DNA of 64,000 nucleotides from Candidatus Sulfomarinibacteraceae bacterium (GTDB taxonomy: Bacteria; Acidobacteriota; Thermoanaerobaculia; Thermoanaerobaculales; Sulfomarinibacteraceae). Positions 4,031-57,696 of this stretch are shown piece after piece (the first letter of the stretch is position 1; each line of letters opens with the position of its first letter). Both the position numbers and the translations under genes were made by a program. Under the pieces are notes generated by a model. It was not told the origin of the DNA, did not search any database, and saw only the letters and a list, made by a program, of their open reading frames with translations. The stretch is from contig CAVQQC010000022.1 in assembly GCA_963714895.1 (NCBI GenBank), positions 94,746-158,745 on the forward strand, in the 5' to 3' direction.

Positions 4031-4134
4031 AATTCGGATTTCGGATTTCGGATTTCGGATTTGCCTTCGGCCCCGTTCACGGGCGGAGGGCGGGGGCTGG
4101 AAATCCGAAATCCGAAATCCGAAATCCGAAATTG
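4031..4134. repeat. Inverted tandem-heptamer element: (CGGATTT)4 ... (AAATCCG)4 around a spacer of about 38 nt
   Basis: Read directly: aattcggatttcggatttcggatttcggattt ... ggaaatccgaaatccgaaatccgaaatccgaaatt. Lies between lpdA and tdk, so a possible terminator hairpin. Confidence 0.85.
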
Positions 4135-4170
4135 ATCCCTGCTAATCTGTACGCCTCGAAGGGAGCGCGG

Positions 4171-4797
4171 ATGAATCCAACCCGTCCTGGTGCAGGCTGG
4201 ATCGAGGTCATTGCCGGGCCCATGTTTTCGGGCAAGTCGGAGGAGCTGATCCGGCTCCTCAAGCGGGCGATGATCGCCCGCCAGAGGGTCCAGGTCTTCA
4301 AACCGAGGCTCGACAACCGCTACTCGGAGGGGGATGTGGTCTCCCACTCGCAGATGCGGGTGCCGTGCGAGTTGGTGGAGCGCGCGGACGAGATCAGACC
4401 GCGGCTCGATCCCCGAACCGAGGTCGTCGGCATCGACGAGGCGCAGTTCTTCGACGATGCGCTGCCCGGAGTGTGCGGGCACCTGGCCAACCTCGGCAAG
4501 AGGGTCATCGTCGCCGGTCTCGACATGGACTACCGCGGGGTGCCCTTCGGACCCATGCCGAGACTCCTGGCGGTGGCGGAAGAGGTCCACAAGATCCACG
4601 CCATCTGCACCTGCTGCGGATCCCCGGCCGCCTACACCCAACGCCTGATCGAGTCCGACGAACTTGTGGTGGTCGGCGCCACGGGAGCTTACGAAGCCCG
4701 TTGCCGGCGCTGCCACGAGCCCGAGGGCGCGCCGCCGGCCTCCGAGCCGTGGTTGTTCCAGTCGACCGACGCCGTGGACGGGGAGCCCGAAAGTTGA
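4171..4797 (+). CDS. tdk: Thymidine kinase
   Basis: [14 protein letters not shown]-loop, [11 protein letters not shown]-terminal zinc motif CTCCG...CRRCH. GGGAG ribosome-binding site upstream of the ATG at 4171. Confidence 0.9.
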
Positions 4798-6783
4798 GAC
4801 TTCGCGCGCGATGGTGGTGGCTCACAGGAGCGGTCATCATCGTGACCACAGCGGCCACCCTGGCCATCGCCCCGGAATCCGGGTTCGCACAGCTGGTGTT
4901 CGCCCTATCGCTCCTGTGGGCCGTTCTCAGTGCCTTTTGGGTGGGCATCAGGGTCTGGCGGTGGATGACCTATCGGGTCGGCGTGCGCCTGTTCGTCACC
5001 TATCTGGGGGTCGGGGTGCTGCCGGTGCTCTTTGCCATCACCTTCGGGATGGCGGGTCTCTACATCCTGATGGGCCAGTACACCTCGGTGCAATTGGGTT
5101 CGGAACTCCGCCGGGTGCGCTGGGAGCTCGCACACCAGTGCGACTCGGTTCTGCAGCGGGCGGAGCTCCAGGGCGTCGATTCCGCCGTCGGGCTGCTCGA
5201 AGAGTTCGCGGCAGCCACCCACGAACCGTTGCCGCAGGTCGTGTGGCAGGCGCGGTTCGGTGATCGGATTGTCGGTCTGGAGGGCGGCGAAGACCTGCCG
5301 GAAATAGACTGGCTCACGGCAAGCGAGCGCGACCTGACGGCTCGATACGGCGATCGAGCTTTCGGCGTTGTCTCCTCGGCTTCCGCCGCCGGAGATCGGG
5401 TGACGGCGCTTATCCCCTTGGACGAGGCCTCTTCTCGTGCCATCAGCAGTGAGTGGTGGTTTGACGTCGCGTTTCTGGTCGAGAACGGTGGCGGCGAGGG
5501 CGGAGACGCCGAAGACGCCGAGAATGAAATCGAGATCTCGACCGCCCGGCGAGGGACCATGAATTTCTCCGTGAGTGGTCGCGAGGTTTCTGGGAGCGAC
5601 CTCTGGCCCCAGTGGTCAGAGGAGGGCTCGTCACTTCTCGCCCAACCGTGGGTGGTGTGGTTTCGAGTCGAGCCCGACCTGGTCGATCTGGCGACCGGTG
5701 AGCCGCTCGAGGGCGCCAGTTTGCTGGCGCTGCTGCGGACCTCTCCGGTCAAAGTCTGGGAGGATTTCACCCTTTCCCGCTACGAGCTCGGGCGCGAACT
5801 GTGGGGCGTCCTGGCGGGTCTCGCGGCTTTCTTTCTCGTCGGCTACGGGCTGGCGCTGGCGGCCGCGGCGGCGGTTGTCTTCTCCATCGCCCGATCGACT
5901 TCGAGGCTGACCCAGGGTGCGCGGCAGGTGGAGCGGGGGAACCTCGATCACCGGGTGCCGGTCAAACGCTCAGACCAGCTCGGCGACCTCGCGCGGTCGT
6001 TCAACCACATGACCGATGCGGTGCAGTCGATGCTGGTGGACGTCGCCGAGAAGGAGCGGCTGGCGCGCGAGCTCGAGCTCGCCCGCGAGATCCAACAGAG
6101 CCTGCTGCCGGCCCGCCGCCTCGAGCTGGGGCGGCTTCGCGTGCGCGCCACCTTTCAACCGGCGGCCGAGGTCGGCGGCGACTACTTCGACGTTTTCTCG
6201 GTGGCGGACGATCGCCTCGTGGTCACCGTGGGCGATGTCGCGGGCCACGGCCTTTCCACCGGGCTCCTGATGGCGAGCCTCAAGTCGTCGGTTGCGGCGT
6301 TGGTGCACGAGGGCTACGCGGGATCGGAGCTGATCGACAAGGCCAACCGGTTGTTGATGGGGCACGGCCGGGCGCGGACGATGGTCACCATGGTGGTCGT
6401 CGACGTGGATCCTGTGCGGGGGCGCCTCGCGCTGGCCAATGCGGGGCACCCGCCGCCCTTCCTGATCCGCCGCGACCGCGGTCCCCGCGAGCTCCTTGCG
6501 GGCGCCCTCCCGATGGGCAACCGCTTGTGCAGCCCGGCGTCGACGGAGTGCGACTTCCCCGACGGTGCACGCCTGTTTCGTGTATTCGGACGGGTTGGTC
6601 GAGGCGGTCGCGGCGGACGGCGAGCCGTTCGGCTACGACCGTCTGCTTCGACTGCTCGAAGAGAACGCCGACCTCGACGGCGACGCCTTGATTGCCCGCG
6701 TCCTCGAGGCTCTCGCCGACTACACCGCGGGTGTGCCGCTGGCCGACGACCTGACGCTTCTCGTGGTCGAACGATGCGACTGA
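4794..6783 (+). CDS. Membrane sensor with HAMP domain and PP2C (SpoIIE/RsbU-type) phosphatase (one frameshift as assembled)
   Basis: TTG start overlapping the tdk stop, N-terminal TM helices, HAMP ([17 protein letters not shown]), PP2C motifs ([35 protein letters not shown]). The frame changes at the TTT run at about 6576-6578. Confidence 0.75.
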
Positions 6784-6926
6784 TCATGGAGCGCCTCGTC
6801 AGCAACGCTCGTGAGCGGGTTTGCGGGCGGTCGCAAACAAATGGGAGGGGATAAAAACCCTTCCCCTACGATCGTAAATGATGCGAGAGGCTGCATTTCG
6901 AACGGGCGTCGTATCATGGAAGGGTC

Positions 6927-10271: not shown

Positions 10272-10302
10272 CAAAAGCGCGGCTTCGGCCGCGCTTTTTT
10301 TT
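10272..10302 (+). terminator. Rho-independent terminator
   Basis: aaaaGCGCGGCttcgGCCGCGCttttttttt directly after the cytochrome c stop. Confidence 0.8.
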
Positions 10303-10307
10303 GGCGT

Positions 10308-10420
10308 GAGGCTTGGGGCTTGAGGCTTGAAATCCGAACTGAGGTTACGGAGCGCCAACTCCGCAGGGCCCCAGGCCCCAAGCCCCAGGTCTCAAGCCCC
10401 AGGCCCCAAGCCCCAAGCCC
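10308..10420. repeat. Inverted tandem-heptamer element (GGGGCTT)n ... (AAGCCCC)n
   Basis: gaggcttggggcttgaggcttga ... ccccaggccccaagccccaggtctcaagccccaggccccaagccccaagccc. Confidence 0.7.
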
Positions 10421-10480
10421 TTCTTGGCATCCCCCGGGAGGCCGTGTATCGTGCTCTATCGCTGCCGCGAGCGGAGGACC

Positions 10481-12109
10481 ATGCCGACCGAAGACAAACG
10501 CTCTGCCATTTCCGTCGACGAGGCGCGGCACCGGGCCGGGATGACGGCTTTCCCCGATCGGGGTGAGGTTCCGCGAATCGGCGGTGTCGGTCTCGAGCCC
10601 GAGCTCTTCCCGATCGTGCGCGACGGCGAGGGCCGTCCGGCGGGTCGGGCGTTGCTGACGCAGCCTGGCGGTCACGGCGTGCTCGAGATCATCGACGAGC
10701 TTGCGACATCCGACGACAGGATCGAGCCCCGCGACGGCAACGCACCCGGACCGGTGGAATACCCGGTTGAGGGCGGTGGAAGGCTCACCTTCGAACCCGG
10801 AGGGCAGGTCGAACACTCGACGGCGGTCTACTCGTGTGTGGCTTCGGCGGTCGCCGACGTCGCCGACGTGCTGGGCCGCGTGCGGCGAGCGTTCGATCAC
10901 CACAACATGTCGCTTGCCGCCATCGGCATGGATATCTGGCACGACGTGGAAACGGTGCCGCAACAGCTTCGGGCGGGCCGCTACACGGCCCAGGCCGCCT
11001 ACTACCGGCAACGCGGACACTGGGGCGCGGTGATGATGCGCCACACCGCCAGCCTGCAGATCAACCTCGATCTCGGTCCGAGTGATACGTGGAAGGAGAG
11101 GTGGTTGCTCTCCAACCTCGCCAGCCCGTTGATGACGGCGACCTTTGCCAGCAGTCCGAGCGAGAGCGCGGTGTGCACCCGGGCGCGGGCGTGGCAGGAA
11201 CTCGATCCGACGCGGAGCGGTTTCCCTTCCCTCCTCGTTCACGGTGAGGGCGACGATCCCCGCGGCGAGTGGGGCCAGGCGGCGCTCGACGCAGATGTCA
11301 TGCTCTACCGGGTCGACGACGGCCATTACGAACCGGGGTGCGTCGGCTGTACCTTTGAAAAGTGGATCGTCGAGGGTCATCCCCGCTGGGGCTGGCCGAC
11401 CGCTGCGGACCTCGATTACCACCTCACCACCCTGTTCTTCGAGGTGCGGCCGCGGGGTTTCCTCGAGTTGCGGGCCGGCGAGGCGCTGCCGAACCAGTGG
11501 CGGCCGGTGCCGGTGGCACTGATGGCAGCGCTCTTCTACGACGATCGCGCGCGGACGGCCGCGTTGGATCTGCTCGGCGACCTCCGCGGCCGCCTTCCCG
11601 AACTGTGGCGGCGCGCGGCCCTCGACGGGGTCCGCGATTCCGATCTGCGAGACCTCGCGTGCAGGCTGTGGAAGATCGGTCTCGACGGCATGCAGGCGCT
11701 GCCGTCCGGTTATGTGGCGGAGGATCAAGTAGCGACGACGCGCGCCTACCTCGAGCACTTCACCGAACAAGGCCGGACGCCGGGGGATGATCTTCTCGAT
11801 CTCAACAACGAAGACCCCGCGGTGGCGTTGGAGTGGGCGAGTTCGCTAAGGCGCGAAATTTCGGATTTCGGATTTCGGATTTCGGAATTCCGGACCGAAC
11901 CTTCACGGCACGTCGATGGCATGGCTCGCCGCCTTCGTCGGCTGGCAATGCGGCAATGGCCGGCCGCGTTGCGGCCTGGCGATGAGGTCATGGTGCACGA
12001 GCACTCCTCACTCTGGGATAGTTGCACCGCCTCACAGCCTCACGACTGCCTCACGGCCTCACTGCCTCAACTGCGCTATTCTCGTTCAGGCCCTTGGAGG
12101 ATGAGATGA
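10481..12109 (+). CDS. Glutamate--cysteine ligase family protein (GCS2/EgtA-like); C-terminus uncertain
   Basis: [46 protein letters not shown]. The ORF has no stop until 12109 because it reads through the heptamer repeat ([11 protein letters not shown]), so it overlaps the pgi start. Confidence 0.7.
11857..11891. repeat. Tandem heptamer (TTTCGGA)n
   Basis: aaatttcggatttcggatttcggatttcggaattcc. Confidence 0.8.
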
Positions 12110-14069: not shown

Positions 14070-14098
14070 GTAGGGTGGGCTTCAGCCCACCATCAGAG
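14070..14098. repeat. REP-like hairpin GTAG-GGTGGGC-ttca-GCCCACC
   Basis: gtagggtgggcttcagcccaccatcagag. The same unit recurs at 27064-27090 (inverted) and 27118-27146. Confidence 0.75.
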
Positions 14099-14144: not shown

Positions 14145-14328
14145 GCAGGGGAGCAGGGCAGAGCAGGGGAGCAGGGGAGCAGGGGCGAGCAGGGGAGCAG
14201 GGGAAACAAGCCCCTTATCACGAAGCGGCGATCAAATTCGAAATCCGAAATCCGAAATCCGAAATCTGCGATGGCTCCCTTTCTCCCTTTCTCCCTTTCT
14301 CCCTTTCCCCCTTTCGCCTTTTCTCCCG
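14145..14328. repeat. Composite block of three different tandem repeats: (CAGGGGAG)n, (AAATCCG)n, (CTCCCTTT)n
   Basis: 14145-14204 octamer array, 14236-14266 heptamer array, 14276-14327 octamer array, read directly. Confidence 0.75.
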
Positions 14329-14413
14329 TGCCCCACTGCACTTCTGCTATTTCTCAGGTTTCTCCGGGCGGCCGGGTTAGAATGCCGGTTCCCCGTAGCG
14401 GGCTGGAGGATCC

Positions 14414-16389: not shown

Positions 16390-16430
16390 GATACAGGCAA
16401 CGGAAAGGCATTGAGGCAGTGAGGCAGTGA

Positions 16431-16640
16431 GGCAATGGGGCAGTGGTCGGCCGCGTTGCGGCCTGGCAATGGGGCAATGAGGCAGTGGTCGGCCGCTCTG
16501 CGGCCTGGCAATGAGGCCATGGGTCAGTGGTCGCCCGCGCTGCAGCCTGGCAATGGGGCAATGAGGCAGGGTCGGCCGCTCTGCGGCCTGGCAAGGGCCA
16601 TGGGCGGTGGTCGGCCGCGCTGCAGCCTGGCATGAGGCCG
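16431..16640. repeat. Tandem array, about 42-bp unit x5, each unit with a GGCCGC-nnn-GCGGCC hairpin
   Basis: Units such as ggcaatgRggcagtggtcggccgcKYtgcggcctggcaat. Flanked by (GAGGCAGT)n at 16411-16430 and (GCCTCACT)n at 16644-16685. A single related unit lies at about 11935-11990. Confidence 0.8.
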
Positions 16641-16750
16641 CGGGCCTCACTGCCTCACTGCCACACCGCCTCACTGCCTCACTGCCCATCCACACCGCCC
16701 GATGGAAGCCTCACGCCATCCCCGACGTTGACCTGCAGTCGAGCCTGCCG

Positions 16751-17514: not shown

Positions 17515-19136
17515 TCAACCGAAGAATTACCCGACGGGCGGTCGCGGCCGTCGCCCTGGTCTTCGCGGTGGGGTGCACACTCGGCCCCGATCCCGAACGC
17601 CCGACGACTGCGGCCGATGTCGGCTCGAGCTACGTCTACGCGCCCGAAGACTCCACGGGGCCGTTGCCGGAGGTGACGCCGTGGTGGCGGGAATTCGGCG
17701 ACGAGACCACCACCGAGCTCGTCGAGCTCGCCCTCGCCCACAACACCGATCTGCGGGCGGCGGCGGCGCGGGTCCTGGAGGCCGAGGCCAACCTGAGCCG
17801 CGCGGGCGGCGCGAGATTGCCCCAGGTCGGCTACGGCGCCGCGGCATCAACCCAACGGAACTCGTTCGTGCTGCCGAACATCGGGCGCCAGGACATTGAC
17901 TCCACGACCTACTCCTACAACTTCAACGTGTCCTGGCAGGCCGATCTCTTCGGCCGCCTCAAGCGAACCCAGCAGTCGACCTGGGCCACCCTGCTGGCTG
18001 AAGAGGCGGCGCGAGAAGCCGTGGTCCACTCGGTGGTCGCCGCGGTCGTCCGCGCGCGGGTTCTGGTCGCCACGACCGCGTGGGCGCTGGACATCAACCG
18101 GCAGATCACCGCGAGTTGGGAGTCGACCACGCGAACGGTCGACCGCCGCTATCGGGCCGGCATCGCCGGCGCTGTCGAGCTCCACCTGGCGCGCGAAAAC
18201 CTGGCATCGGCGCGTGCTTCCGAAGCGACTTTGGAGGGCCAGCTCGAACTGGCGCGGCTCGCTCTGGACGTGCTCGTCGGCCGCCGACCAGGCAGCGCCG
18301 AGATGCTTCCGGCCACCATGCCGCAGCTCCCGTCGCTCGATCCCGTACCGCTCGGTCTACCGGCGGCCCTCCTCGACCGCCGGCCCGATCTGCGGCGCGC
18401 CGAGATGCAGCTTTCAGCCGCCACCTACGGCGTCGGCGCGGCGATCGCAAACCTCTATCCGGATCTCAGTCTGACCGGTTCGGTCGGAGAGTCTGCAGAT
18501 TCGTTCAACCAACTCGATCTGACAAACTTCGTCTACAACATCGTCGCCAACCTCACCGGTCCGCTCTTCAGCGGCGGTCAGCGGCGGGCGGATGTCGATG
18601 CAGCCAAGGCGCGGGCCGAACAGGCTGCGGCGGTGTACGCGGGGGCGGTGTTGAACGCGCTTCGCGAGGTCGAGGATGCGCTGGTGCTCGGCGACTCGTC
18701 GGTTCAGAATTTCTACCTGACGACCGATCGCGTTGCCGAGGCCCGTGCAGCGGACAGCCTCGCGAAACAGCGTTATCAGCGCGGCGTGGAGACCCTGCTC
18801 ACGGTTCTCGAGACCGAGCGTCGGCTGCGTCTCGCCGAACAGGCGATCGTCAACAGCACCATCAGCGTGTGGAACGCACGCATCGATCTCTTCCTCGCCC
18901 TCGGCGGCGACTGGGGCACCGATCCCCCGGATGCCGAACCCGATCGCAGTCGTTGCGAGCCGAGACCCAAGCCGATTCCGAAAATCCGAAATCCGAAATC
19001 CGAAATCCGAAATCTGAAGAGGTACTCTGATGTCTTCCAAAACCCTCAAGTTCGTCATTCCCGTTCTCGTCGTCATCGCCGGTTTCGCCGCAGCAGCAGT
19101 CATCACGTCGGCCCGCAAAGCGCCGCCCAGGGTTGA
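17511..19136 (+). CDS. RND efflux outer-membrane lipoprotein (NodT family); C-terminus uncertain
   Basis: Lipobox VFAVGC and two TolC-like repeats ending ...IDLFLALGGDWG. The ORF then reads through the (AAATCCG)n repeat and 107 nt into the next gene. Confidence 0.85.
   Translation: MINRRITRRAVAAVALVFAVGCTLGPDPERPTTAADVGSSYVYAPEDSTGPLPEVTPWWREFGDETTTELVELALAHNTDLRAAAARVLEAEANLSRAGGARLPQVGYGAAASTQRNSFVLPNIGRQDIDSTTYSYNFNVSWQADLFGRLKRTQQSTWATLLAEEAAREAVVHSVVAAVVRARVLVATTAWALDINRQITASWESTTRTVDRRYRAGIAGAVELHLARENLASARASEATLEGQLELARLALDVLVGRRPGSAEMLPATMPQLPSLDPVPLGLPAALLDRRPDLRRAEMQLSAATYGVGAAIANLYPDLSLTGSVGESADSFNQLDLTNFVYNIVANLTGPLFSGGQRRADVDAAKARAEQAAAVYAGAVLNALREVEDALVLGDSSVQNFYLTTDRVAEARAADSLAKQRYQRGVETLLTVLETERRLRLAEQAIVNSTISVWNARIDLFLALGGDWGTDPPDAEPDRSRCEPRPKPIPKIRNPKSEIRNLKRYSDVFQNPQVRHSRSRRHRRFRRSSSHHVGPQSAAQG
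18976..19016. repeat. Tandem heptamer (AAATCCG)n
   Basis: ccgaaaatccgaaatccgaaatccgaaatccgaaatctg. Confidence 0.85.
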
Positions 19137-23432: not shown

Positions 23433-23433
23433 A

Positions 23434-23490
23434 GAATTCGGAATTCGGAATTAGGAATTTGTGAATTTCGGATTTCGGATTTCGGATTTT
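23434..23490. repeat. Tandem heptamers (GAATTCG)n followed by (ATTTCGG)n
   Basis: gaattcggaattcggaattaggaatttgtgaatttcggatttcggatttcggatttt. Confidence 0.85.
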
Positions 23491-26968: not shown

Positions 26969-27001
<33 letters not shown>

Positions 27002-27200: not shown

Positions 27201-27611
27201 TCAACCCAAGCCCCAAGCCCCTAAAACTGTCGACCCCGGTCCGGTCGGAAGACGTTTTGGTAGTGGCGGACGCGCCACGGGAAGCAATCCGCCGATCCGT
27301 TCGATGGTGACGAGATCGAAACGGCACGGCCGGTCCCACAGCGAGAACCGGCCGAGATAGGCGGCCGAGACCCGGGTCAGGATCCTTTTCTTTTTGTCGT
27401 CGAGCGCGGCGGCGGCGCCGCCGAAGTCATCGCTCGATCGCGCCTTGACCTCGACGAAGACGATCTCGCCGCGGCGCTCCATCACCAGGTCGAGCTCGCC
27501 GCCGGCGCCGCGCCAGTTGCGGTGGCGCAGCCGGTAGCCCTTGCCGAGGAGCAATAGCAGCGCGAACCACTCGGCGGTACGTCCGAAATGGTGGCGGCGG
27601 AGCGGGGACAT
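27201..27611 (-). CDS. yraN: YraN family endonuclease (UPF0102)
   Basis: GRTAEWFALLLLLGKGYRLRHRNWRGAGGELDLVMERRGEIVFVEVKARS...CRFDLVTI. The C-terminal tail runs into the AAGCCCC repeat. Confidence 0.8.
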   Translation of the reverse strand: MSPLRRHHFGRTAEWFALLLLLGKGYRLRHRNWRGAGGELDLVMERRGEIVFVEVKARSSDDFGGAAAALDDKKKRILTRVSAAYLGRFSLWDRPCRFDLVTIERIGGLLPVARPPLPKRLPTGPGSTVLGAWGLG

Positions 27612-29213: not shown

Positions 29214-29234
29214 GGGAGTTTGATTGTAGAGTCA

Positions 29235-29462
<228 letters not shown>

Positions 29463-29468
<6 letters not shown>

Positions 29469-31877: not shown

Positions 31878-31905
31878 GGTCGGATTGTCTCATGGGAGCA
31901 GTCGC

Positions 31906-31927
31906 GGAATTCGGAATTCGGAATTCC
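31906..31927. repeat. Tandem heptamer (GGAATTC)3
   Basis: gcggaattcggaattcggaattccatcaca. The same 'ccatcaca' junction occurs at 23490-23497. Confidence 0.8.
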
Positions 31928-38891: not shown

Positions 38892-38893
38892 CC

Positions 38894-40822: not shown

Positions 40823-40825
40823 AAA

Positions 40826-41122: not shown

Positions 41123-41132
41123 ACGACCTGGC

Positions 41133-41161
41133 TTGACAGTTGATTCGCCAGAATGTATCTT
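41133..41161 (+). promoter_or_regulatory. Putative cassette-borne promoter (mazEF)
   Basis: TTGACA, 17 nt, TATCTT. Confidence 0.45.
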
Positions 41162-41182
41162 CTTTGTAGATACGGAGGCGTT

Positions 41183-41425
41183 ATGAAAACTCAGGTCCAA
41201 AAATGGGGAAACAGCCTGGCTCTCAGGATTCCGAAAGCCTTTGCGGCTGACCTGGGATTGGCACACGACACCCCGGTTGAGCTTTCTCTTGAAGACGGCA
41301 ATCTTGTAATCCGCCCGTCGTCGATTCAGCGTTATGAACTCAGCAGCCTATTGACGCGAGTCACGGAAGCAAACGTGCATGGTGAGCAGGACAACGGCGA
41401 CGCTGTCGGATCCGAAGAGTGGTAG
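41183..41425 (+). CDS. mazE: MazE/AbrB-type antitoxin (SpoVT-AbrB domain)
   Basis: MKTQVQKWGNSLALRIPKAFAADLGL...LVIRP. Confidence 0.8.
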   Translation: MKTQVQKWGNSLALRIPKAFAADLGLAHDTPVELSLEDGNLVIRPSSIQRYELSSLLTRVTEANVHGEQDNGDAVGSEEW

Positions 41426-41760
41426 CTGGAAAAGAGGCCCCGCAACGTGGTGACGTGGTCTGGGTTTCGCTGAACCCGCAGGCCGGCCACGAACAGGAAG
41501 GTCGAAGGCCTGCGCTGGTTCTGTCGCCGGTTGAGTACAACGAACGGGTCGGTTTGGCGCTGATGTGTCCGGTGACGAGCAAAGTCAAAGGCTATCCGTT
41601 CGAGGTACCTCTTCCAGAAGACCTCGATATTGGAGGCGTGGTACTGGCCGATCAGGTCAAGAGTCTCGATTGGAGAGTTCGCAGAGCTGAGCATGCTTGC
41701 ACCGTGCCTCAGTCCGTCATGAATGAAGTGCTCGGAAAACTCAATGCGCTCCTCACGTGA
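41419..41760 (+). CDS. mazF: MazF/PemK family endoribonuclease toxin
   Basis: PQRGDVVWVSLNPQAGHEQEGRRPALVLSP...CPVTSKVKGYPFEV...VLADQVKSLDW. Confidence 0.85.
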   Translation: MVAGKEAPQRGDVVWVSLNPQAGHEQEGRRPALVLSPVEYNERVGLALMCPVTSKVKGYPFEVPLPEDLDIGGVVLADQVKSLDWRVRRAEHACTVPQSVMNEVLGKLNALLT

Positions 41761-41785
41761 TGAAGGACCGCTTGATGACTGTGAG

Positions 41786-41854
41786 CCCTAACACCTCATT
41801 CCATCGGACCCCCACCCGCGGCGGGTGTGGTCCGCTGAACTCGGACCGTTAGGT
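41786..41854 (+). other. attC site (family 1)
   Basis: (G)CCCTAAC...GTTAGGT. Confidence 0.85.
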
Positions 41855-41879
41855 TTACAATGGGTTTGGAGACACAGCC

Positions 41880-42077
41880 ATGAAGTACAAAGTAGCCCTT
41901 CACGAAGACGAAGAAGGCTTCGCCGTTTCTGTACCCGGACTTCCAGGATGTTGGTCTCAAGGTGGCACCGAAAGGGAAGCTCTCGAAAATATCGAAGCAG
42001 CGATTCGTGAGTACCTTGAGGTCGTTGACGATCTCATCGGTGACTCAATGGTTCGCGAGATCGAAATCGCGGTCTGA
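41880..42077 (+). CDS. hicB: HicB antitoxin (short form)
   Basis: YKVALHEDEEGFAVSVPGLPGCWSQGGTEREALENIEAAIREYLE. Confidence 0.8.
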   Translation: MKYKVALHEDEEGFAVSVPGLPGCWSQGGTEREALENIEAAIREYLEVVDDLIGDSMVREIEIAV

Positions 42078-42079
42078 AG

Positions 42080-42292
42080 TTGCCTCGAATACCTGGCGTC
42101 AACCACCTTGCGGCCGTCAGGGCACTCGAAAAGGCCGGATTTCGCATCGCCCGCCAGAGCAAACATATCGTTATGACCGACGGCACGCGAATTGTCACGA
42201 TTCCGCGGCACAATCCTGTCAACGCATTCACGCTGGGTGGAATCGTCCGAGACGCCGGCCTCACCGTTGAGGAGTTCAGGGCGTTGCTGTGA
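42080..42292 (+). CDS. hicA: HicA toxin
   Basis: AVRALEKAGFRIARQSKHIVMTDGTRIVTIPRHNPVNAFTLGGIVRDAGLTVEEF. Confidence 0.8.
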   Translation: MPRIPGVNHLAAVRALEKAGFRIARQSKHIVMTDGTRIVTIPRHNPVNAFTLGGIVRDAGLTVEEFRALL

Positions 42293-42299
42293 TCCATCC

Positions 42300-42374
42300 A
42301 CCTAACTCCTCATTCCAGCGGACCCCCACCCCCACCCGCGGCGGGTGTGGTCCGCTGAACTCGGACCGTTGGCG
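42300..42374 (+). other. attC site (family 1 variant, 75 bp; R' GTTGGCG)
   Basis: ACCTAAC tcctcattccagcggacccccacccccacccgcgg...ggaccG|TTggcg. Confidence 0.8.
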
Positions 42375-42527
42375 CGGCGCTTCGCGCCGCCCCAACAGAC
42401 GGGAGTTTAATGTGCGCCCGGTGTCCGGCGCGGCGCCGGCCAACCGTGCGTTCAAGCTGACGGACGCAGGCTACAGTCGCACGCGGCGTGCGCCTGATAT
42501 CCTGCGCCGCAGCTTAACTCCCGTCTG
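42369..42527 (+). mobile_element. 159-nt ORF-less structured element / micro-cassette, copy 3
   Basis: Near-identical to copies 1 and 2. Here the closing stem is perfect (aacagacgggagtt/aactcccgtctgtt). Followed by TTAGGG. Confidence 0.7.
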
Positions 42528-42552
42528 TTAGGGTATGAAAGAAACGTAACGC

Positions 42553-42581
42553 TTGACGTTATTAACGCGACGCATTATTAT
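42553..42581 (+). promoter_or_regulatory. Putative cassette-borne promoter (higBA-2)
   Basis: TTGACG, 17 nt, TATTAT. Confidence 0.5.
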
Positions 42582-42587
42582 AGTACT

Positions 42588-42869
42588 GTGATTCGGAGCT
42601 TCAAAGACCCAGAGGCCGAACGGATTTTCAAGCGTGAACGTTCTAGAAAGCTCCCGCAGAACATCTACCGCTCGGCTTTGAAGAAGCTTCTCGTGCTTGA
42701 CGCCGCCGATGCTTTGGCCGATCTGAGAGTTCCGCCCGGGAATCGCCTTGAAAAGCTGTCCGGGGATCGAAAGGGTCAACACAGCATCCGGATCAACGAT
42801 CAGTGGAGGATCTGCTTCCGCTGGAGAAACGGCGATGCCCTCGATGTGGAAATCGCCGACTATCACTAA
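42588..42869 (+). CDS. higB: HigB-type toxin (second copy, divergent)
   Basis: LRVPPGNRLEKLSGDRKGQHSIRINDQWRICFRW...VEIADYH. Confidence 0.8.
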   Translation: MIRSFKDPEAERIFKRERSRKLPQNIYRSALKKLLVLDAADALADLRVPPGNRLEKLSGDRKGQHSIRINDQWRICFRWRNGDALDVEIADYH

Positions 42870-42876
42870 GGACGGA

Positions 42877-43185
42877 ATGATGGCGAAGAAACTGGTGGAC
42901 CCAATTCACCCTGGCGAGATCTTGATGGAGGAGTTCCTTGAGCCTCTGGGTGTCAGTCAGTATCGGCTGTCCAAGGACATCAGTGTGCCTCCACGTCGCA
43001 TCAACGAGATTGTCCATGGCAAGCGCTCGATTACAGCGGACACGGCGCTTCGGCTTGCACGTTTCTTTGGAACGACTGAGCGGTTCTGGCTCAATCTCCA
43101 GGTTCGTTATGACCTCGAAGTCGAAAAGGACCGTCTTGAAGACGTGCTCGATCGCGATGTAACAGTGTTCCAGGCCGTTGGGTAA
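42877..43185 (+). CDS. higA: HigA antitoxin (second copy)
   Basis: IHPGEILMEEFLEPLGVSQYRLSKDISVPPRRINEIVHGKRSITADTALRLARFFGTTERFWLNLQ. Confidence 0.85.
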   Translation: MMAKKLVDPIHPGEILMEEFLEPLGVSQYRLSKDISVPPRRINEIVHGKRSITADTALRLARFFGTTERFWLNLQVRYDLEVEKDRLEDVLDRDVTVFQAVG

Positions 43186-43194
43186 AGTAATGAG

Positions 43195-43269
43195 CCCTAA
43201 CACCTCATTCCAGCGGACCCCCACCCCCACCCGCGGCGGGTGTGGTCCGCTGAACTCGGACCGTTAGGC
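43195..43269 (+). other. attC site (family 1 variant, 75 bp)
   Basis: (G)CCCTAAC...cccacccccacccgcgg...GTTAGGC. Confidence 0.85.
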
Positions 43270-43282
43270 CAGAGACGAAAAC

Positions 43283-44032
43283 GTGGATGACACCTTCCAC
43301 CTCTACACAGACCTAGCGTGGCTGTGGCCAATGTGGGGCGATGCCACCACTGAATACGCGCACTATTGCCGGCACGTTACAGGCCTGATTCGACAGCACG
43401 CCAAGCGCCCGGTAGGCACCTTGCTGGACATTGGGTGCGGGGGCGGAAAAAACGTCTTGAATCTGAAGCGGGAGTTCAACGTCACCGGTGTTGATCTGAG
43501 TTCCGCCATGCTCGCACAGGCGAAAGAATTGAATCCAGAGTGCACGTTCATCCAAGGGGATATGCGAACGTTCAGGCTCGACAGTACCTTCGACGCCGTA
43601 ATGATGGATGATGCAATATCGTACATGAGTTGCCTCGCCGACTTCGTGGCGGCGTTTCGGACGGCGTATGCTCACCTGAACCCTGGCGGCGTTCTGGTCG
43701 CGACTCCGGATGCGACGACCGAGACTTTCCAGCAAAACAAGACGATCGTTACCCCCGCGACGCCCAAGGCCACACCGGCCGGCGTCGAGGTCGTGTTCGT
43801 TGAGAACACGTATGATCCCGACCCCACGGATGAGCAGTACGAAACGACGGTTTTGTATCTCATTCGTGTCCATGGGCGCCTCCGGATTGAGACCGACCAC
43901 TGGACCATGGGGATATTCAGTCTGGACACATGGAGGCGTGTTCTGCGCGAGGCCGGTTTCGAGGTGCATGAGGGACAGTACAGCACGGGCGAGGATGACT
44001 ACATGGTTTTCACCTGCGTTAAGGCAGGATGA
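43283..44032 (+). CDS. Class I SAM-dependent methyltransferase
   Basis: LLDIGCGGGKNV motif I, DAVMMDDAISYM, LNPGGVLV. Confidence 0.8.
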   Translation: MDDTFHLYTDLAWLWPMWGDATTEYAHYCRHVTGLIRQHAKRPVGTLLDIGCGGGKNVLNLKREFNVTGVDLSSAMLAQAKELNPECTFIQGDMRTFRLDSTFDAVMMDDAISYMSCLADFVAAFRTAYAHLNPGGVLVATPDATTETFQQNKTIVTPATPKATPAGVEVVFVENTYDPDPTDEQYETTVLYLIRVHGRLRIETDHWTMGIFSLDTWRRVLREAGFEVHEGQYSTGEDDYMVFTCVKAG

Positions 44033-44037
44033 AGGCC

Positions 44038-44090
44038 GCACAACGCGTTGCAGGCGACGCTTGACAGCGCGCCTGAACGCCACGTTAGGC
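44038..44090 (+). other. attC site of a different, shorter type (53 bp)
   Basis: GCACAAC-GCGTTGCAGGCG-acgcttgacagcg-CGCCTGAACGC-cac-GTTAGGC. The stem has one unpaired base, as attC sites typically do. Confidence 0.65.
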
Positions 44091-44123
44091 GACAACGATC
44101 GTTTCTCGGTACATAATTGACCC

Positions 44124-44364
44124 GTGAGTCCTACCGTCTTTCGAAGCGGCCCGTACCGGTTTTATTTCTTTTCCAGGGAAGAGCCGCGATTGCACATCCA
44201 TGTCGATTCAGCCAAACGGGGAGGCCAAGTACTGGATCGAACCGGCTGTAGAATTGGCTCGAAGTCACGGTCTTTCAGAACCCGAGTTGGTTCGGGTACG
44301 TAAACTAGTAGAGGAGCACGAGGATGTCATCCGTACAGCATGGGACAAGCAATTCGGTGGCTGA
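44124..44364 (+). CDS. DUF4160 family protein (one frameshift as assembled)
   Basis: VSPTVFRSGPYRFYFFSREEPRLHIHVDSA..., then in the next frame AKYWIEPAVELARSHGLSEPELVRVRKLVEEHEDVIRTAWDKQFGG. The join is at the GGGG run at about 44218-44221. Confidence 0.6.
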
Positions 44365-44590
44365 GGTCACCAACATCTCCAGGCACGGCGTCTGGCTGCT
44401 GGTGGACGACCGCGAGCTCTTCATGCCCTTCGATGAGTTTCCCTGGTTCAAAAACGCGCCGGTCAATTCCGTCCTCAAGCTCGAGCGCCCCGGTCACAAT
44501 CACCTTTATTGGCCTGCTCTCGATGTCGACCTCACGGTTGAATCAATCGAGCATCCTGAGAGATACCCGCTCAAAGCCAAGCATGCCTAA
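44324..44590 (+). CDS. DUF2442 family protein
   Basis: VAEVTNISRHGVWLLVDDRELFMPFDEFPWFKNA. Usual partner of DUF4160. The stop is the TAA in the attC R''. Confidence 0.7.
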   Translation: MSSVQHGTSNSVAEVTNISRHGVWLLVDDRELFMPFDEFPWFKNAPVNSVLKLERPGHNHLYWPALDVDLTVESIEHPERYPLKAKHA

Positions 44591-44653
44591 CACCTCGTTC
44601 CAGCGGACCCCCACCCGCGGCGGGTGCGGTCCGCTGAAATCGAACCGTTAGGA
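44585..44653 (+). other. attC site (family 1)
   Basis: GCCTAAC acctcgttccagcggacc...GTTAGGA. Confidence 0.85.
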
Positions 44654-44660
44654 GTCGCAG

Positions 44661-52971: not shown

Positions 52972-53028
52972 GGCTTGAAAAGTCGAACACTCACAGAACT
53001 CAACACTAAGAACTCAACACTAAGATAC

Positions 53029-55740
53029 TCATCCCGTGTTCTGCATCCCCCTGGCAATGCCCCTCACGGTCACTTTGAGCGCTTCTTCGAGTTCGAGGTC
53101 CTCTCGGTCGCCCGCTCGCCAACGCCGCAACAGATCGACCTGGAGGATGCTGATGGGGTCGACGTAGGGATTGCGAAGGCGAATCGAGCGCCGTAACACC
53201 GGTTCCCGCTCGAGCGGTTCCCTGATTCCCCGCAGACGACAGATCAGCTCCCGGGTGCGGCCGTACTCGGCCAGGATCCCGGGGAACAGCTTCTCGCCGG
53301 CCTCGCCCGCCAACCCGGCATACCGTTCGGCGATCCCCATGTCGGCCTTGGCGAGCACCATCTCGACATCGGCCAGGAGATTCTCAAAGAACGGCCAGTC
53401 ACGAGCCATCTCGCCGAGCAGGTCCTCGCCGTGGGCGTCGATAGCTGCAGCGAGACCCGCACCGACGCCGTACCAGCCCGGAAGCAGATGGCGGTTCTGC
53501 ACCCAGGAGAAGACCCAGGGGATGGCGCGCAGGCTTTCGACGCCGCCGCCCGAACGGCGGGAGGCCGGACGCGAGCCGATCTCGAGCCGCTCGATGATGT
53601 CGATCGGAGTGGCGGAGCGGAAGTAGGGGATGAAGTCCGGGTCCTCGTACACCAGGGCGCGGTAGGTCGACCGTCCGGTGCGTGCGATCGTCGTCATGAC
53701 GTCGGCGAATTCGCCGCTTGGAGTGTTTTCGTCACCGCCGCCGACGCTCGCTTCGAGCACGGCGCCCGTCATCAGTTCGAGAGTTCGCAAGGCGATGCCG
53801 CGCAGGCCGTACTTGGCATGGATGATTTCACCCTGTTCGGTGAGCCGCATGCGCCCGTGCATGACGCCGGGCGGCTGCGCGAGAATGCCCGCCCTCGGTT
53901 TGCTGCCGCCTCGGCTCGGTGTGCCGCCGCGACCGTGGAACAGGGTGAGCTCGACCCCGGCCCGGTCGGCGACCTCTGACAGCGTCGATTCCGCTCGGTA
54001 GAGTGCCCACCGCGAGGCCGCGAGACCGGATTCCTTGCTGGAGTCTGAATACCCCAGCATCACGATCTGCCGGTCGCCTCGTGCCGCGACGTGTGCCCGG
54101 TAGAGAGGATTGTCGAGAAGGGCGGTCAGAGTTTCGGAGGCTTGATCGAGATCACCGACGGTCTCAAACAGCGGCGCGACGTCCAGCGGAACGCCCCCGC
54201 CGGAATCGATCAGCCCCGCGCACCTCGCGAGATAGAGGACCGCCAGCGCGTCATCCGGCCCCTGTGCCATCGAGATGATGTAGGGACCGATGGCTTCTTG
54301 ACCGAAGACCTCTCGCGCCTCGGCGAGTGCTCGGAAGACACCAAGAGTCTTGGCAACGCCAGGATCGCTGGGGACATCGGCTTCAACCACCGACTCCAGG
54401 GCTTCGCGCAGCATCGCGGTGCGTTTGAGGGAGCCGGAATCTTCGAATTCGGCGTCGTCGAGAAGGACGCCGACCGCCGCCCGATGGACGGCGGCGTCCT
54501 GCCGGATATCGAGGGTCGCCATGTGGAATCCAAAGGCGGCGACCCGTTGCGCGAGTCTGGAGGTCCTGAGGAGGCCGGCGTGCTCACCCTTGTGACGGCG
54601 AAGACTGGCGGTCACCAACTCGAGGTCTTCAAGGAAACCGGATGCCGACCGGTAGGCGTGGTCGCCTCCGGCCAGGATTTCCTCCAATCGCGCCCAACAA
54701 AACCACAGCAGGATCCGGTGCGGCATATCGTCATAGCGATCCGGAATCCCAGCCGCCACCTCAGGCATGGTTTGGCGATAGAAGACGCATCGCTGTTCGA
54801 GTTCTGGGTCAACTTCGACTCGCGATCGAGATTGGCTGAGGTGACCGAAGAGTTCGCGGACCTCGGTGATGTAGCGGCCGATAATCATCTCGCGCTGACG
54901 GTCGAGGGTGCGACGGATGGTGTCGGGCCCGACATTGGGGTTGCCGTCCATATCGCCGCCGACCCACGATCCGAAACGCACGAACGGGCCCGGGAGGGCG
55001 TTCACGGCGTCGCCGCCGAAGGCCGTGAGAAACGATGCGGCCATCGCTTCGTCGAGCGCCGGCACCACGCGGTAGATGACGTCGATGAGGTAGAACAGAA
55101 CATGCTCGGTCTCGTCGGCCACCGTGCGCCTGACACCGGGGTGTTCGGCGGTCTGCCACATCAGCGTGATCTCGTCGCGAAGCCGGCCCGTTAGCGCTGC
55201 GTCCTCGGTCGGTGTGCGGTCGGTGTGCTGCAGTCGGTCGATCAGGAGGGCTGCGACGCGCTGCTCCTTGGCGAGGATCGTGCGGCGGATGGCTTCGGTG
55301 GGGTGCGCGGTGAAGACGGGTTCTACAAGCATTTTCCCGAGCACTGCGCGGACTTCGCCTGGCGTCGCTCCGGAAGCCGCGAGTCGACGCATGACGTCGT
55401 CGAGGCTGCCGGGTTGTGGCGTGCCCGACCGGAGATATTCGCGGCGGCGCCGGATGCGTTGGACCCGTTCCGCCATGTTGACGAGCGCGAAATAGCCGGA
55501 AAAAGCACGTGCCACCTCGGAGGCATCCGCGGGTGCGAGCCCGGTCAGCAGGTCGTCAAGCGTTTTTTCGGCGTCAGTGTCGCCTTCACGTCGTGACCGC
55601 GCCGCCACCCGCGCGCCCTCGACGATTTCGAAGAACTCATCACCGTCCTGTTCACGCAGCACTTCGCCGAGGAGGGCGCCGAGAAAACTGACGTCTCGCC
55701 GCAACCCGTCGGCGGCTTCAATTGGAGCGGTGTTATTCAT
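53029..55740 (-). CDS. ppc: Phosphoenolpyruvate carboxylase
   Basis: 903 aa. VFTAHPTE, GYSDSSKESG, FHGRGGTPSRGG, C-terminal RGIARGMQNTG. Confidence 0.95.
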   Translation of the reverse strand: MNNTAPIEAADGLRRDVSFLGALLGEVLREQDGDEFFEIVEGARVAARSRREGDTDAEKTLDDLLTGLAPADASEVARAFSGYFALVNMAERVQRIRRRREYLRSGTPQPGSLDDVMRRLAASGATPGEVRAVLGKMLVEPVFTAHPTEAIRRTILAKEQRVAALLIDRLQHTDRTPTEDAALTGRLRDEITLMWQTAEHPGVRRTVADETEHVLFYLIDVIYRVVPALDEAMAASFLTAFGGDAVNALPGPFVRFGSWVGGDMDGNPNVGPDTIRRTLDRQREMIIGRYITEVRELFGHLSQSRSRVEVDPELEQRCVFYRQTMPEVAAGIPDRYDDMPHRILLWFCWARLEEILAGGDHAYRSASGFLEDLELVTASLRRHKGEHAGLLRTSRLAQRVAAFGFHMATLDIRQDAAVHRAAVGVLLDDAEFEDSGSLKRTAMLREALESVVEADVPSDPGVAKTLGVFRALAEAREVFGQEAIGPYIISMAQGPDDALAVLYLARCAGLIDSGGGVPLDVAPLFETVGDLDQASETLTALLDNPLYRAHVAARGDRQIVMLGYSDSSKESGLAASRWALYRAESTLSEVADRAGVELTLFHGRGGTPSRGGSKPRAGILAQPPGVMHGRMRLTEQGEIIHAKYGLRGIALRTLELMTGAVLEASVGGGDENTPSGEFADVMTTIARTGRSTYRALVYEDPDFIPYFRSATPIDIIERLEIGSRPASRRSGGGVESLRAIPWVFSWVQNRHLLPGWYGVGAGLAAAIDAHGEDLLGEMARDWPFFENLLADVEMVLAKADMGIAERYAGLAGEAGEKLFPGILAEYGRTRELICRLRGIREPLEREPVLRRSIRLRNPYVDPISILQVDLLRRWRAGDREDLELEEALKVTVRGIARGMQNTG

Positions 55741-56643: not shown

Positions 56644-56746
56644 GGTCGCGATCCGGCGCTTTCGGTTTCCGGGAACTGCATCATGGTTTCAATGTACCTG
56701 ATTCGGCGGTGAGCCGTTCGGCCGGGCGCCGCTTCCCGGGGGAAGG

Positions 56747-57505
56747 TCAGCCGCCGTCGCAACAACCGGCACCGGCGCCGTCGGGCGAAGGAACGCCGCT
56801 CTGCATCCCCTCGTGCTTGTGGATGGCGGCGGTGACCGATGCCGGGCGGCCGAGGATGGCGAAGAGACCCAGGGCCACCAGCAGGACGGCGGTGACGGCG
56901 GGCACGTGGCGGCGCAAAGGTGCGCTCAACAATTGAGTGCCGAACCCCACCGCCAACAGCGCGGGGACGGTGCCCGCCCAGAATGCGGTCATGACGGCTG
57001 CGCCCTCGATCGCGCCGCCGGTACCAGCAGCGGTGACCACGAAGGCCCACAACCAGCCGCAGGGCAGAAAGCCAGACAGCAGCCCGACGACGGAGGCGCG
57101 GACCAGCGGAGGTTTGTCGCTGACCAGCGAAAATCCGCGCCGGAAGAGGCGCGCCAACCGTCCGTTGCCGCTGCCGTGTTTGAAGATGCGGACGCCGCGA
57201 ATCTGGAGCAGGGCGAGCACGCCCCACAGGATCATGGTCGCTCCGGCGACCATCGCGGCGACGCGCTGAAAACCGGCCAACGACCCGGCGACGTCGAGGG
57301 CGGCGCCGACGGCTCCCGCGGCGAGCCCGAAGAGCACGTAGGTGACCAACCGTCCACCGGAGTAGGCGGCGTGGCTGAGCATCCGGCGGGTGCCCGCCGA
57401 CCCGTCGGACCCGCTGTAGAAGGCGACGAAGGGGCCGCACATGCCGACGCAGTGCAGCGAGCCGACCACGCTCGCGACGAAGACGGTGGCGAGAAGTGGG
57501 CTCAT
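56747..57505 (-). CDS. TauE/SafE-like (DsbD_2-type) membrane protein associated with the cco cluster
   Basis: GSLHCVGMCGPF and SGFLPCGWLW motifs, about 6 TM helices. Start taken at MSPLLATVF; the longer ORF only translates the repeat. Confidence 0.7.
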   Translation of the reverse strand: MSPLLATVFVASVVGSLHCVGMCGPFVAFYSGSDGSAGTRRMLSHAAYSGGRLVTYVLFGLAAGAVGAALDVAGSLAGFQRVAAMVAGATMILWGVLALLQIRGVRIFKHGSGNGRLARLFRRGFSLVSDKPPLVRASVVGLLSGFLPCGWLWAFVVTAAGTGGAIEGAAVMTAFWAGTVPALLAVGFGTQLLSAPLRRHVPAVTAVLLVALGLFAILGRPASVTAAIHKHEGMQSGVPSPDGAGAGCCDGG

Positions 57506-57522
57506 GGAGCGGTCCGTACAAA

Positions 57523-57696
57523 ATTCGGAATTCGGAATTCGGAATTTTGAATTTCGAACCCGTCGCTGCACCACACGGGAAGCGCTGTCCGCCATTCCGA
57601 ATTTCGGATTTCGGATTTCGGATTTGGCTCCGCCCTCCCCAAGAAACCTGGGTGGCTGGTTGAAAATCCGAAATCCGAAATCCGAAATCCGAAATC
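57523..57696. repeat. Composite heptamer element: (GGAATTC)n, then inverted (CGGATTT)n ... (AAATCCG)n
   Basis: 57523-57547 ggaattc array. 57596-57625 cggattt array. 57664-57696 aaatccg array (inverted partner, spacer of about 38 nt). Confidence 0.85.

Follow-up and report, generated by a model that had tools for sequence, protein, structure and literature searches.

What are the short tandem heptamer arrays that recur between the genes of Candidatus Sulfomarinibacteraceae bacterium, and what do they do there? We addressed this question in a window of 64,000 nucleotides, by which we mean the whole stretch analyzed (contig CAVQQC010000022.1 of assembly GCA_963714895.1, positions 94,746 to 158,745), where the units GGATTTC and GGAATTC (together GGAWTTC) are repeated head to tail in spacers and in places face an inverted copy. 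The host is a soil or sediment bacterium, and protein searches gave closest matches that were 93 to 72% identical for its AcrB and 100 to 73% identical for its thymidine kinase (TK). We found that the arrays are hepta- and, in some cases, octanucleotide microsatellites of the kind known as short tandemly repeated repetitive (STRR) sequences in cyanobacteria and as GGGAATC arrays in Xanthomonas, and that they are a normal and long-lived component of spacers in a Thermoanaerobaculia-type lineage of Acidobacteriota. For their function, we lean tentatively, with slightly less than even confidence, toward a foldback repeat that would be homogenized by slippage and serve as a hairpin- or cruciform-forming spacer at gene boundaries, much like the repetitive extragenic palindromes (REP) and bacterial interspersed mosaic elements (BIME).

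Tandem Repeats Finder and an exact-period scan recovered period-7 arrays at every locus that an earlier reading of the letters alone (here, the sequence-only reading) had listed. There are 13 GGATTTC/GGAATTC arrays at 10 spacers, with 3.1 to 4.7 perfect copies each and up to 6 to 7 units when degenerate end units are included; 12 perfect arrays are delimited in Table 1, and imperfect ones lie at 23433-23460 and 29433-29468. The 14-mer GGAATTCGGAATTC, equal to two units, was found 16 times with at most one mismatch, compared to an expectation of 0.06 from 100 dinucleotide-preserving shuffles, none of which gave more than two matches. Using a hand-curated gene list for 1 to 33 kb, we found that 9 of the 10 GGAWTTC arrays in this part lie wholly within the 14% of the sequence that is non-coding (P ~ 2e-7), and a reading of the gene map indicates that ~11 of the 14 spacers longer than 50 nt bear arrays. 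Thus, the description of a dispersed tandem heptamer family with a strong spacer bias holds. No heptamer arrays were found between 32 and 57 kb of the window, a region that includes an integron cassette array.

The three inverted pairs proposed earlier were also confirmed, with arms at 4029-4063/4100-4134, 57599-57626/57663-57697, and 29234-29268/29433-29468, stems of 30 bp, and spacers of 36, 36, and ~165 nt, respectively. RNA folds of the first two reach -72.7 and -61.1 kcal/mol (z ~ -8.7). The same holds for the GGGGCTT-type pair (10303-10330/10368-10420; RNA fold, -68.7 kcal/mol; z, -5.5) and its short copy at 27205-27221. In addition, the window contains 8-base families, absent from the sequence-only reading, that have the design of the heptamer arrays: GCAGGGGA/CTCCCTTT octamers at 14145-14334, AGGCAGTG/GCCTCACT octamers around GC hairpins at 16406-16699 and 11935-12069, and a CACAGAGA family at 13860.

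The arrays follow rules of orientation and position. Read away from the nearest gene end, 13 of 13 arrays in the window are (GGAWTTC)n; that is, the sense strand carries GGAWTTC (the G-strand) right after stop codons and GAAWTCC (the C-strand) right before start codons. At 84 loci in other high-GC genomes, where genes were called crudely from GC at third codon positions (GC3), the G-strand prevailed near stops (23 versus 8) and the C-strand near starts (30 versus 12), roughly 53:20 overall, and the palindromic GGAATTC variant kept this polarity (8:2 and 7:1). Of 27 sense arrays, 21 start within -3 to +8 nt of a stop codon, often borrowing part of it, while C-strand arrays upstream of genes end 1 to 30 nt before start codons. 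Neighboring arrays on opposite strands are convergent in 25 cases and divergent in 6; one convergent count is an artifact, the palindromic array at 31906 having been called twice, and one "divergent" case consists of arrays on either side of a small gene, each pointing away from it. Both arms carry the matching unit variant in all 12 pairs, and copy number peaks at 4 to 5 units. Base profiles of the 24 nt on each side of 143 arrays showed no conserved sequence and no target-site duplication, only partial units, with the outer end starting GAWTTC and the inner end closing GGATT.

We then turned to relatives, comparing contig L005 and syntenic contigs that had been deposited separately as JGI, ENA/NCBI, and Logan records, in stretches of 8 to 23 kb. 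Arrays occupy the same spacers in these independently assembled relatives, and they are therefore not an assembly artifact; being one is what the sequence-only reading had named as a refutation of the family. Array positions are kept in relatives down to ~74 to 81% nucleotide identity, and the relatives share the same vocabulary of units; the arrays 3' of AcrB, for example, are orthologous in four lineages (the window, L121, L122, and L123).

At the junction between the efflux and membrane-fusion genes, an array of ~42 nt lies directly 5' of a GAGG ribosome-binding site in 11 of the 11 lineages seen. It is in frame in 8 of 8 relatives, ending at a stop codon that overlaps the next ATG (TGATG), and is therefore translated, giving the outer-membrane efflux protein a C-terminal tail that varies. 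The proposed intergenic placement thus stands for most arrays and fails for this one, 18977-19018, which in relatives is the in-frame 3' tail of a gene. The window copy (18977-19018) is 2 nt out of frame. Apparent frameshifts split three otherwise intact genes in the window, at ~1870 (E2), 30840-31573 (FixI-like ATPase), and 18900-18975 (efflux tail), and the last of these throws the array out of the frame used by the relatives; these shifts are either indel errors of the assembly or marks of pseudogenes.

Unit sequences at orthologous sites turn over while the repeats are kept. The efflux-junction unit is ATCCGAA, TTCAAAA (in L121), TTCCGAA, ACTCAAA, or TTCCTAA, depending on the lineage, a pattern that we read as concerted evolution. 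In the spacer between the E3 (dihydrolipoamide dehydrogenase) and TK genes, the unit is GGATTTC in the window and L134, GGCTTGR in L133, GGAATKA in L135, and GGAATTC in L005, and the arms pair in all four cases folded (-42 to -88 kcal/mol). The difference between GGATTTC and GGCTTGR (window versus L133) is compatible with drift at 89% identity. In the AcrB array of L121, a C-to-A change that makes TAG has spread through five units and now provides a stop codon. In L007 (3880-3978), the unit switches in mid-array from (CATCGGA)5 to (TTTCGGA)8, and this shows that one family of units can turn into another in the course of one array. The E3-TK arms of L005 (6436-6972, orthologous to 4064-4099) stand 540 nt apart with a small opposite-strand gene between them; the space between arms can therefore accommodate cargo.

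Copy number was stable. Two alignments that cross arrays, one of 17.9 kb at 99.98% identity and one of 7.5 kb at 99.1%, were free of gaps, and copy number was equal in L134 at ~85% identity, a relative whose E3-TK element is more conserved than the genes on either side. The suggestion that copy number would be prone to slippage thus found no support. Whole spacers can differ between close strains: L134 and L135 are 99.1% identical over 7.5 kb, yet both of their array-bearing spacers are completely different, the mismatches are concentrated within the 50 to 120 nt adjoining these spacers, and the L135 version matches that of the more distant L121. Short tracts of homologous recombination thus exchange entire spacer versions between strains. 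We had considered this "cassette swap" as proof of transposition and rejected it, because the cluster of mismatches in the adjoining 50 to 120 nt is a recombination signature.

The unit is widespread. An exact scan for (GGAWTTC)3, with one genome per species, gave at least 120 matches; among the matches listed were Acidobacteriota, Verrucomicrobiota, Planctomycetota, Chloroflexota, Bacteroidota, and others. Across 851 kb taken from the other genomes among these listed matches, 203 of the 218 perfect short arrays had period 7, as did 67 of the 82 left when the searched unit was set aside, and GGATTTC was more common than GGAATTC (106 versus 30 arrays). For a control, we scanned viral contigs, where 54 stretches held the (GGAWTTC) unit, compared to 24, 8, and 18 for three shuffled units. 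This excess is real but only about threefold, so the recurrence across phyla may be in part a general heptamer effect.

How might these observations fit together? The basic element would be a foldback in which (GGAWTTC)n beside the left gene and a complementary (GAAWTCC)n beside the right gene enclose a spacer, GC-rich in the shortest pairs, and single arrays would be half elements. Because such an element would be palindromic and would fill the spacer, every array would read GGAWTTC away from its nearest gene. The units within an array could be held alike, in concerted evolution, through replication slippage or unequal exchange, arm complementarity could be kept by hairpin-templated correction, by selection for pairing, or by both, and whole spacer versions would travel between strains in short homologous-recombination tracts. 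Position, length (4 to 6 units), polarity, and arm complementarity are kept, with the unit sequence itself unimportant, and this favors a structural element over a single sequence-specific reader.

The most likely role would therefore be structural, as an RNA stem at 3' ends or between cistrons or as a DNA element lying between a terminator and the promoter that follows, and the G-poor arm might provide an unstructured stretch just 5' of ribosome-binding sites. The sense RNA of the array at 18977-19018 is unstructured (z, +1.5), whereas the G-strand pairs with itself through G-U. The pair at 10303-10420 lies exactly between a canonical terminator (10274-10303) and a conserved promoter (10424-10452) and so is probably untranscribed, while other pairs and arrays lie inside apparent operons.

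Several points weigh against this structural reading. Evolution in place fails on its own to explain one unit at seven or more spacers in 64 kb, as well as the constant G-arm-first order, and it does not account either for the recurrence of (GGAWTTC)3 in many phyla or for its ~3-fold viral excess over shuffled units. The cross-genome polarity counts lean on the crude gene calls, and paired arrays are not independent observations. G-U wobble asymmetry was rejected as the cause of polarity because the palindromic GGAATTC follows the rule equally. We also looked for selection on the sense-strand RNA by comparing minimum free energy and G-U pair counts of 20 elements whose gene direction is known; the sense and antisense strands were favored in 11 and 9 cases, respectively, folding equally well, so there is no sign of selection specifically on the sense transcript, and this comparison was dropped as support for an RNA-level role.

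Under a rival explanation based on mobility, which we regard as unlikely but worth serious weight, the inverted pair is a non-autonomous element resembling a REPIN or a miniature inverted-repeat transposable element (MITE), copied by a RAYT-like or other transposase encoded elsewhere, with single arrays as decayed halves. The same unit does stand at many spacers of one genome and, among the matches listed, in many phyla, and the fixed arm order, the matching arm variants, the defined end phases, and the 540-nt gene-bearing stretch between the L005 arms also speak for mobility. Two pairs in the metagenome-assembled genome SZAS-13 share the first 30 nt of their spacer, and in the left E3-TK arm of L133 the unit variants follow each other as they do in the cyt-GCS2 arm, at a distance of 6 kb. 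However, the flanks of the 143 arrays show neither target-site duplication nor conserved sequence past the arrays, positions are orthologous down to 74 to 81% identity, the swap between the near-identical strains L134 and L135 has the signature of homologous recombination and not of excision and insertion, and no transposase was evident among the ORFs screened (20 ORFs taken through Pfam, rather than a systematic screen of the window). MITEs combine terminal inverted repeats and target-site duplication with related internal sequence, whereas the spacers here are unrelated between genomes, save for the one SZAS-13 case. As for REP/BIME and REPIN, the arrays have the inverted hairpin doublet in spacers and lack the unique imperfect palindrome of ~20 to 40 nt as an arm. 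A REP-like palindrome, GTAGGGTGGGCTTCAGCCCACC, occurs in three copies (14070-14098, 27070-27090, and 27117-27146) in array-bearing spacers.

We consider it rather improbable that the arrays are binding sites for a trans-acting factor, either an RNA-binding protein of the S1, cold shock, or CsrA type that acts on translation or decay or a DNA-binding nucleoid protein or polar roadblock, in which case polarity would reflect the factor's strand preference. The polarity relative to stops and starts fits such a factor, as do the C-strand arrays that end 1 to 30 nt before starts and the array that directly precedes GAGG at the efflux junction in all lineages. Similar proposals exist for TAACTGA repeats (PMC4679880) and for TTCAAAA repeats of Nostoc (10.1101/2022.06.06.494920), and the latter unit is the one found at the orthologous efflux-junction site in L121. 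Against a factor of this kind, units at one orthologous site differ widely among close relatives, and unrelated unit families (GGAWTTC, GGGGCTT, GCAGGGGA, and GGCAGTGA) share one design in one genome, which leaves no recognition sequence common to all. In at least one case, a C-strand array also lies upstream of a -35 box and hence outside the mRNA of the downstream gene. The earlier idea that the palindrome GAATTC is the binding unit fares no better, since the more common GGATTTC is not palindromic and orthologous units drift (TTCAAAA, ACTCAAA, TTCCTAA, and others).

A further possibility, equally improbable, is that the arrays are more than passive microsatellites and are produced or targeted by a hypothetical system dedicated to writing or maintaining polar foldback elements, made of 7-nt repeats, where genes meet. 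Such a system would be a REPIN-like class with an enzyme of its own or a trans-acting factor sensitive to polarity, and Acidobacteriota, Verrucomicrobiota, Planctomycetota, and others would share it. If true, it would account for the recurrence of units across loci and phyla and for the fixed arm order.

A neutral origin, still a serious rival although we judge it more doubtful again, would make the arrays a functionless by-product of a polymerase slippage preference for 7-nt units, with position and polarity left by the purging of harmful placements and by compaction of spacers through deletion. Heptamers do dominate the short tandem arrays of the genomes compared, an excess of heptamers in many bacteria was reported (Mrazek 2007, as cited in PMC4692102), any heptamer of the same composition makes some arrays in viral contigs, and unit sequence drifts freely. 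Yet array positions persist to ~74 to 81% identity, copy number and near-identical sequence are kept at ~85%, arms stay complementary through complete changes of unit, copy number is confined to a narrow 4 to 5 units, and ~11 of 14 longer spacers in 1 to 33 kb hold arrays.

The sequence-only reading had proposed bidirectional intrinsic terminators or insulators, and this is now very unlikely. Pairs do make long, stable hairpins at gene ends, and G-strand arrays do directly follow stop codons, but what stands on the 3' side of the hairpin is an A-rich arm (GAAAUCC), whichever direction is read, the reverse of the order A tract, stem, U tract, so that no U tract follows in either direction. A terminator scan found no excess, most arrays are single, the pair at 10303-10420 already has a separate canonical terminator (10274-10303) in front of it, and pairs and arrays lie within apparent operons, including the translationally coupled TGATG junction. 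Finally, an assembly artifact or a set of EcoRI-type restriction sites, suggested by the frameshifts in three genes (possible indel errors in the window assembly) and by the GAATTC within GGAATTC, can be dismissed almost entirely given the orthologous arrays in the separate JGI, ENA/NCBI, and Logan assemblies and the lack of the palindrome in the more common GGATTTC.

The family belongs with cyanobacterial STRR, Xanthomonas GGGAATC, and Beggiatoa TAACTGA arrays, and the lineage is new; GGAWTTC arrays were not found printed in the literature searched. Comparison with cyanobacterial STRR, which the sequence-only reading had drawn, is upheld for Calothrix and Nostoc (units such as GGGGAYT and TTCAAAA), since both consist of dispersed heptamer arrays in non-coding DNA, with several unit families per genome and often near starts. 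The phylum is different and the GC content much higher here, STRR are known mainly as fingerprinting targets, and the inverted-pair design and the polarity seen in the window are not known to have been emphasized for them. Xanthomonas is a high-G+C genus. The same reading's remark that no equivalent was known in high-GC genomes outside the cyanobacteria is contradicted by the GGGAATC repeats of this genus, of which each genome has ~185 heptamer arrays, 89 to 93% of them intergenic. The arrays follow the upstream ORF at a mean distance of 28 nt, their modal size is four units, they include 70 to 75 convergent inverted pairs, and they have no link to gene function and no known function (Rehm et al. 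2015, PMC4692102); the same paper refers to Mrazek 2007 for the view that heptamer repeats are generally in excess among bacteria. The likeness extends to the high-GC host, the tandem 7-nt units, the ~90% intergenic placement, the position near ORF ends, and the convergent stem-loop pairs.

Unlike those of Xanthomonas, the window arrays belong to another phylum and have a unit without GGG, and the G-quadruplex rationale offered for GGGAATC is inapplicable: GGAWTTC has only GG runs, below the three or more G per unit in at least four units that define the G-quadruplex subclass, although the GGGGCTT family at 10303-10420 could reach this on the minus strand. The same mode (4 to 5 units here, four there) in arrays that lack G-quadruplex potential weakens that rationale generally. 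Polarity relative to stops and starts, co-variation of the arms, a translated array, and recombinational spacer exchange are features seen here that were not reported for Xanthomonas. TAACTGA repeats of Beggiatoaceae, cyanobacteria, and Bacteroidetes occur in 2 to 6 copies in ~170 spacers, mostly a few nucleotides upstream of starts and patchily across phyla, and a translational role was proposed (MacGregor 2015, PMC4679880). They are likewise heptamer arrays in spacers, but of a single unit that is hardly ever inverted (one indirect repeat reported), whereas inverted pairs are common and many units coexist in the window lineage.

The window arrays are also like REP/BIME in being spacer resident, inverted, and hairpin forming. 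In Proteobacteria, REP/BIME/REPIN elements are inverted doublets in spacers that form long hairpins, with singlets as decayed halves and several families per genome, and protection of mRNA 3' ends and a role in DNA topology between transcription units have been proposed for them. REP arms are unique imperfect palindromes, and REPINs depend on a cognate RAYT transposase; unlike these, the arms here are tandem 7- or 8-nt units. The phase-variable contingency repeats of Haemophilus and Neisseria share with the window arrays a position of short tandem repeats near gene ends, but their 1- to 7-nt units vary in copy number between close isolates and switch genes, whereas copy number here does not differ among close strains (identical at 99 to 99.98% identity) and the arrays flank ordinary housekeeping genes.

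Table 1. Repeat arrays and composites of the window, with the limits of the perfect GGAWTTC arrays
Feature	Position	Strand	Perfect array	Context
G-strand array AGAATTC (GGATTTC)3 GGATTTG, left arm of pair 1	4029..4063	+	4033-4062	begins within TAG stop of E3 gene
GC-rich 36-nt spacer of pair 1	4064..4099	.		lengthens stem as imperfect hairpin
C-strand array (GAAATCC)4.7, right arm of pair 1	4100..4134	-	4100-4132	36 nt upstream of TK ATG (4171)
G-strand array (GGCTTGR)4, GGGGCTT family	10303..10330	+		directly 3' of U tract of canonical terminator 10274-10303
C-strand array (CCCCARG)7.6, partner of 10303-10330	10368..10420	-		stops 3 nt before -35 hexamer of sigma-70-like promoter TTGGCA-17-TATCGT (10424-10452), kept in relatives
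Single G-strand array (GGATTTC)4.7	11858..11890	+	11858-11886	8 nt past TAA stop of GCS2 gene; identical array with equal copy number in L134
8-base composite: GGCAATGN units, GC hairpin (GGCCGCGTTGCGGCC), then (GCCTCACN)5	11935..12069	.
8-base array (GCAGGGGA)7	14145..14204	+		5' of mqnA-like gene; also in L133
Single C-strand array (GAAATCC)4.7	14234..14267	-	14239-14266	upstream of + strand gene starting at 14414
8-base array (CTCCCTTT)6.6, partly complementary to 14145-14204	14275..14334	-		also in L133, and in L031 beside a heptamer array
8-base composite: (AGGCAGTG)5, five 42-nt units with GC hairpins, (GCCTCACT)5	16406..16699	.		divergent MFS/TetR spacer
C-strand array (GAAATCC)5.9	18977..19018	-	18982-19014	11 nt before membrane-fusion gene ATG (19030)
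Two abutting G-strand arrays, (GGAATTM)4 then (GRATTTC)4	23433..23490	+	23465-23489	1 nt past AcrB stop; hairpin in sense RNA only (-25.5 vs -5.9 kcal/mol)
Single G-strand array (GGAATTC)4.6	26969..27001	+	26970-27001	20 nt past stop of + strand ORF 25651-26949
Short C-strand copy (CCCAAGC)2.4, GGGGCTT family	27205..27221	-
Array (GGAATTC)4.7, arm of pair 3; - strand reading (GAATTCC)n	29234..29268	+	29235-29267	18 nt upstream of ATG (29215) of small CcoS-like - strand gene
Imperfect array, other arm of pair 3; - strand reading (GGAATTC/TGAATTC)n	29433..29468	-		32 nt past stop (29501) of - strand FixI-like ATPase gene
Array (GGAATTC)3.1; - strand (GAATTCC)n	31905..31927	+	31905-31926	27 nt upstream of FixI-like GTG start (31877)
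Array (GGAATTC)3.6 plus degenerate units; - strand (GAATTCC)n	57520..57560	+	57522-57546	~15 nt upstream of - strand ATG (57506)
Array (GGATTTC)3.6, arm of pair 2	57597..57626	+	57601-57625
Array, - strand (GGATTTC)4.7, other arm of pair 2	57663..57697	-	57664-57696	~5 nt past stop of - strand ORF 57702-58199

Other elements accompany the arrays. In the octamer composite, each of the five tandem 42-nt units at 16423-16632 consists of two or three GGCAATGR octamers and a GC hairpin (GGTCGGCCGCGYTGCGGCCT), inverted octamer arrays flank these units, and a lone 42-nt unit occurs again at 11936-11998. A conserved structured element of ~110 nt (CGCGTGCGGCGGAGGTGCC ... GGTGGCTCCTCNCGGGAAGCG) that forms a long hairpin lies at 23549-23665 and 31978-32095 and is also present in L118, L092, L023, L107, L133, and L134. 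Compensatory changes affect ten base pairs among 8 copies, several of which are U-G pairs on this strand, and 6 of 10 copies stand 80 to 100 nt downstream of a G-strand GGAWTTC array; the integrase gene has one copy upstream of it, and another sits as an insertion in the E3-TK spacer of L134. The element had no Rfam match, and in the window as a whole Rfam 15 gave no match at gathering score, only sub-threshold chance matches at 23400-23800; it is possibly a new cis-regulatory RNA. A chromosomal integron spans 32365-44656, with an IntI-like tyrosine recombinase at 32365-33234 on the plus strand (PF13495 and a partial PF00589 match) and ~15 attC-like repeats of 70 to 80 nt (GCCTAAC ... GTTAGGC) at 34965-44656, spaced 0.2 to 1.4 kb apart; the cassette DNA is 55 to 58% GC and has no heptamer arrays inside the cassette array. 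Between 32 and 57 kb, short tandem repetition is confined to a 14-nt repeat, AGAACTCAACACTA, in 2.6 copies at 52995-53031, in the spacer before a minus-strand gene ending at 53029.

Heptamer repeats have been seen for decades in cyanobacteria, Xanthomonas, and Beggiatoa without an accepted function. The lineage described here offers an unusually clean data set, in that about three-quarters of the longer spacers hold arrays and many relatives have been assembled, and what it adds is the polarity rule, the co-variation of arms across relatives, one translated array, the stable copy number, and the recombinational exchange of spacers. There is also a practical point: none of the frames of an array unit offers a stop or start codon, ORFs therefore continue across the arrays, and gene callers that read through them misplace gene ends. 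Any explanation has to meet arrays that point away from genes, abut stops and starts, keep their arms complementary despite unit drift, and hold a stable copy number. With these rules, a vaguely defined repeat becomes a choice among alternatives that can be tested, namely a hairpin spacer with a structural role, a foldback element that moves, or an array that binds a factor.

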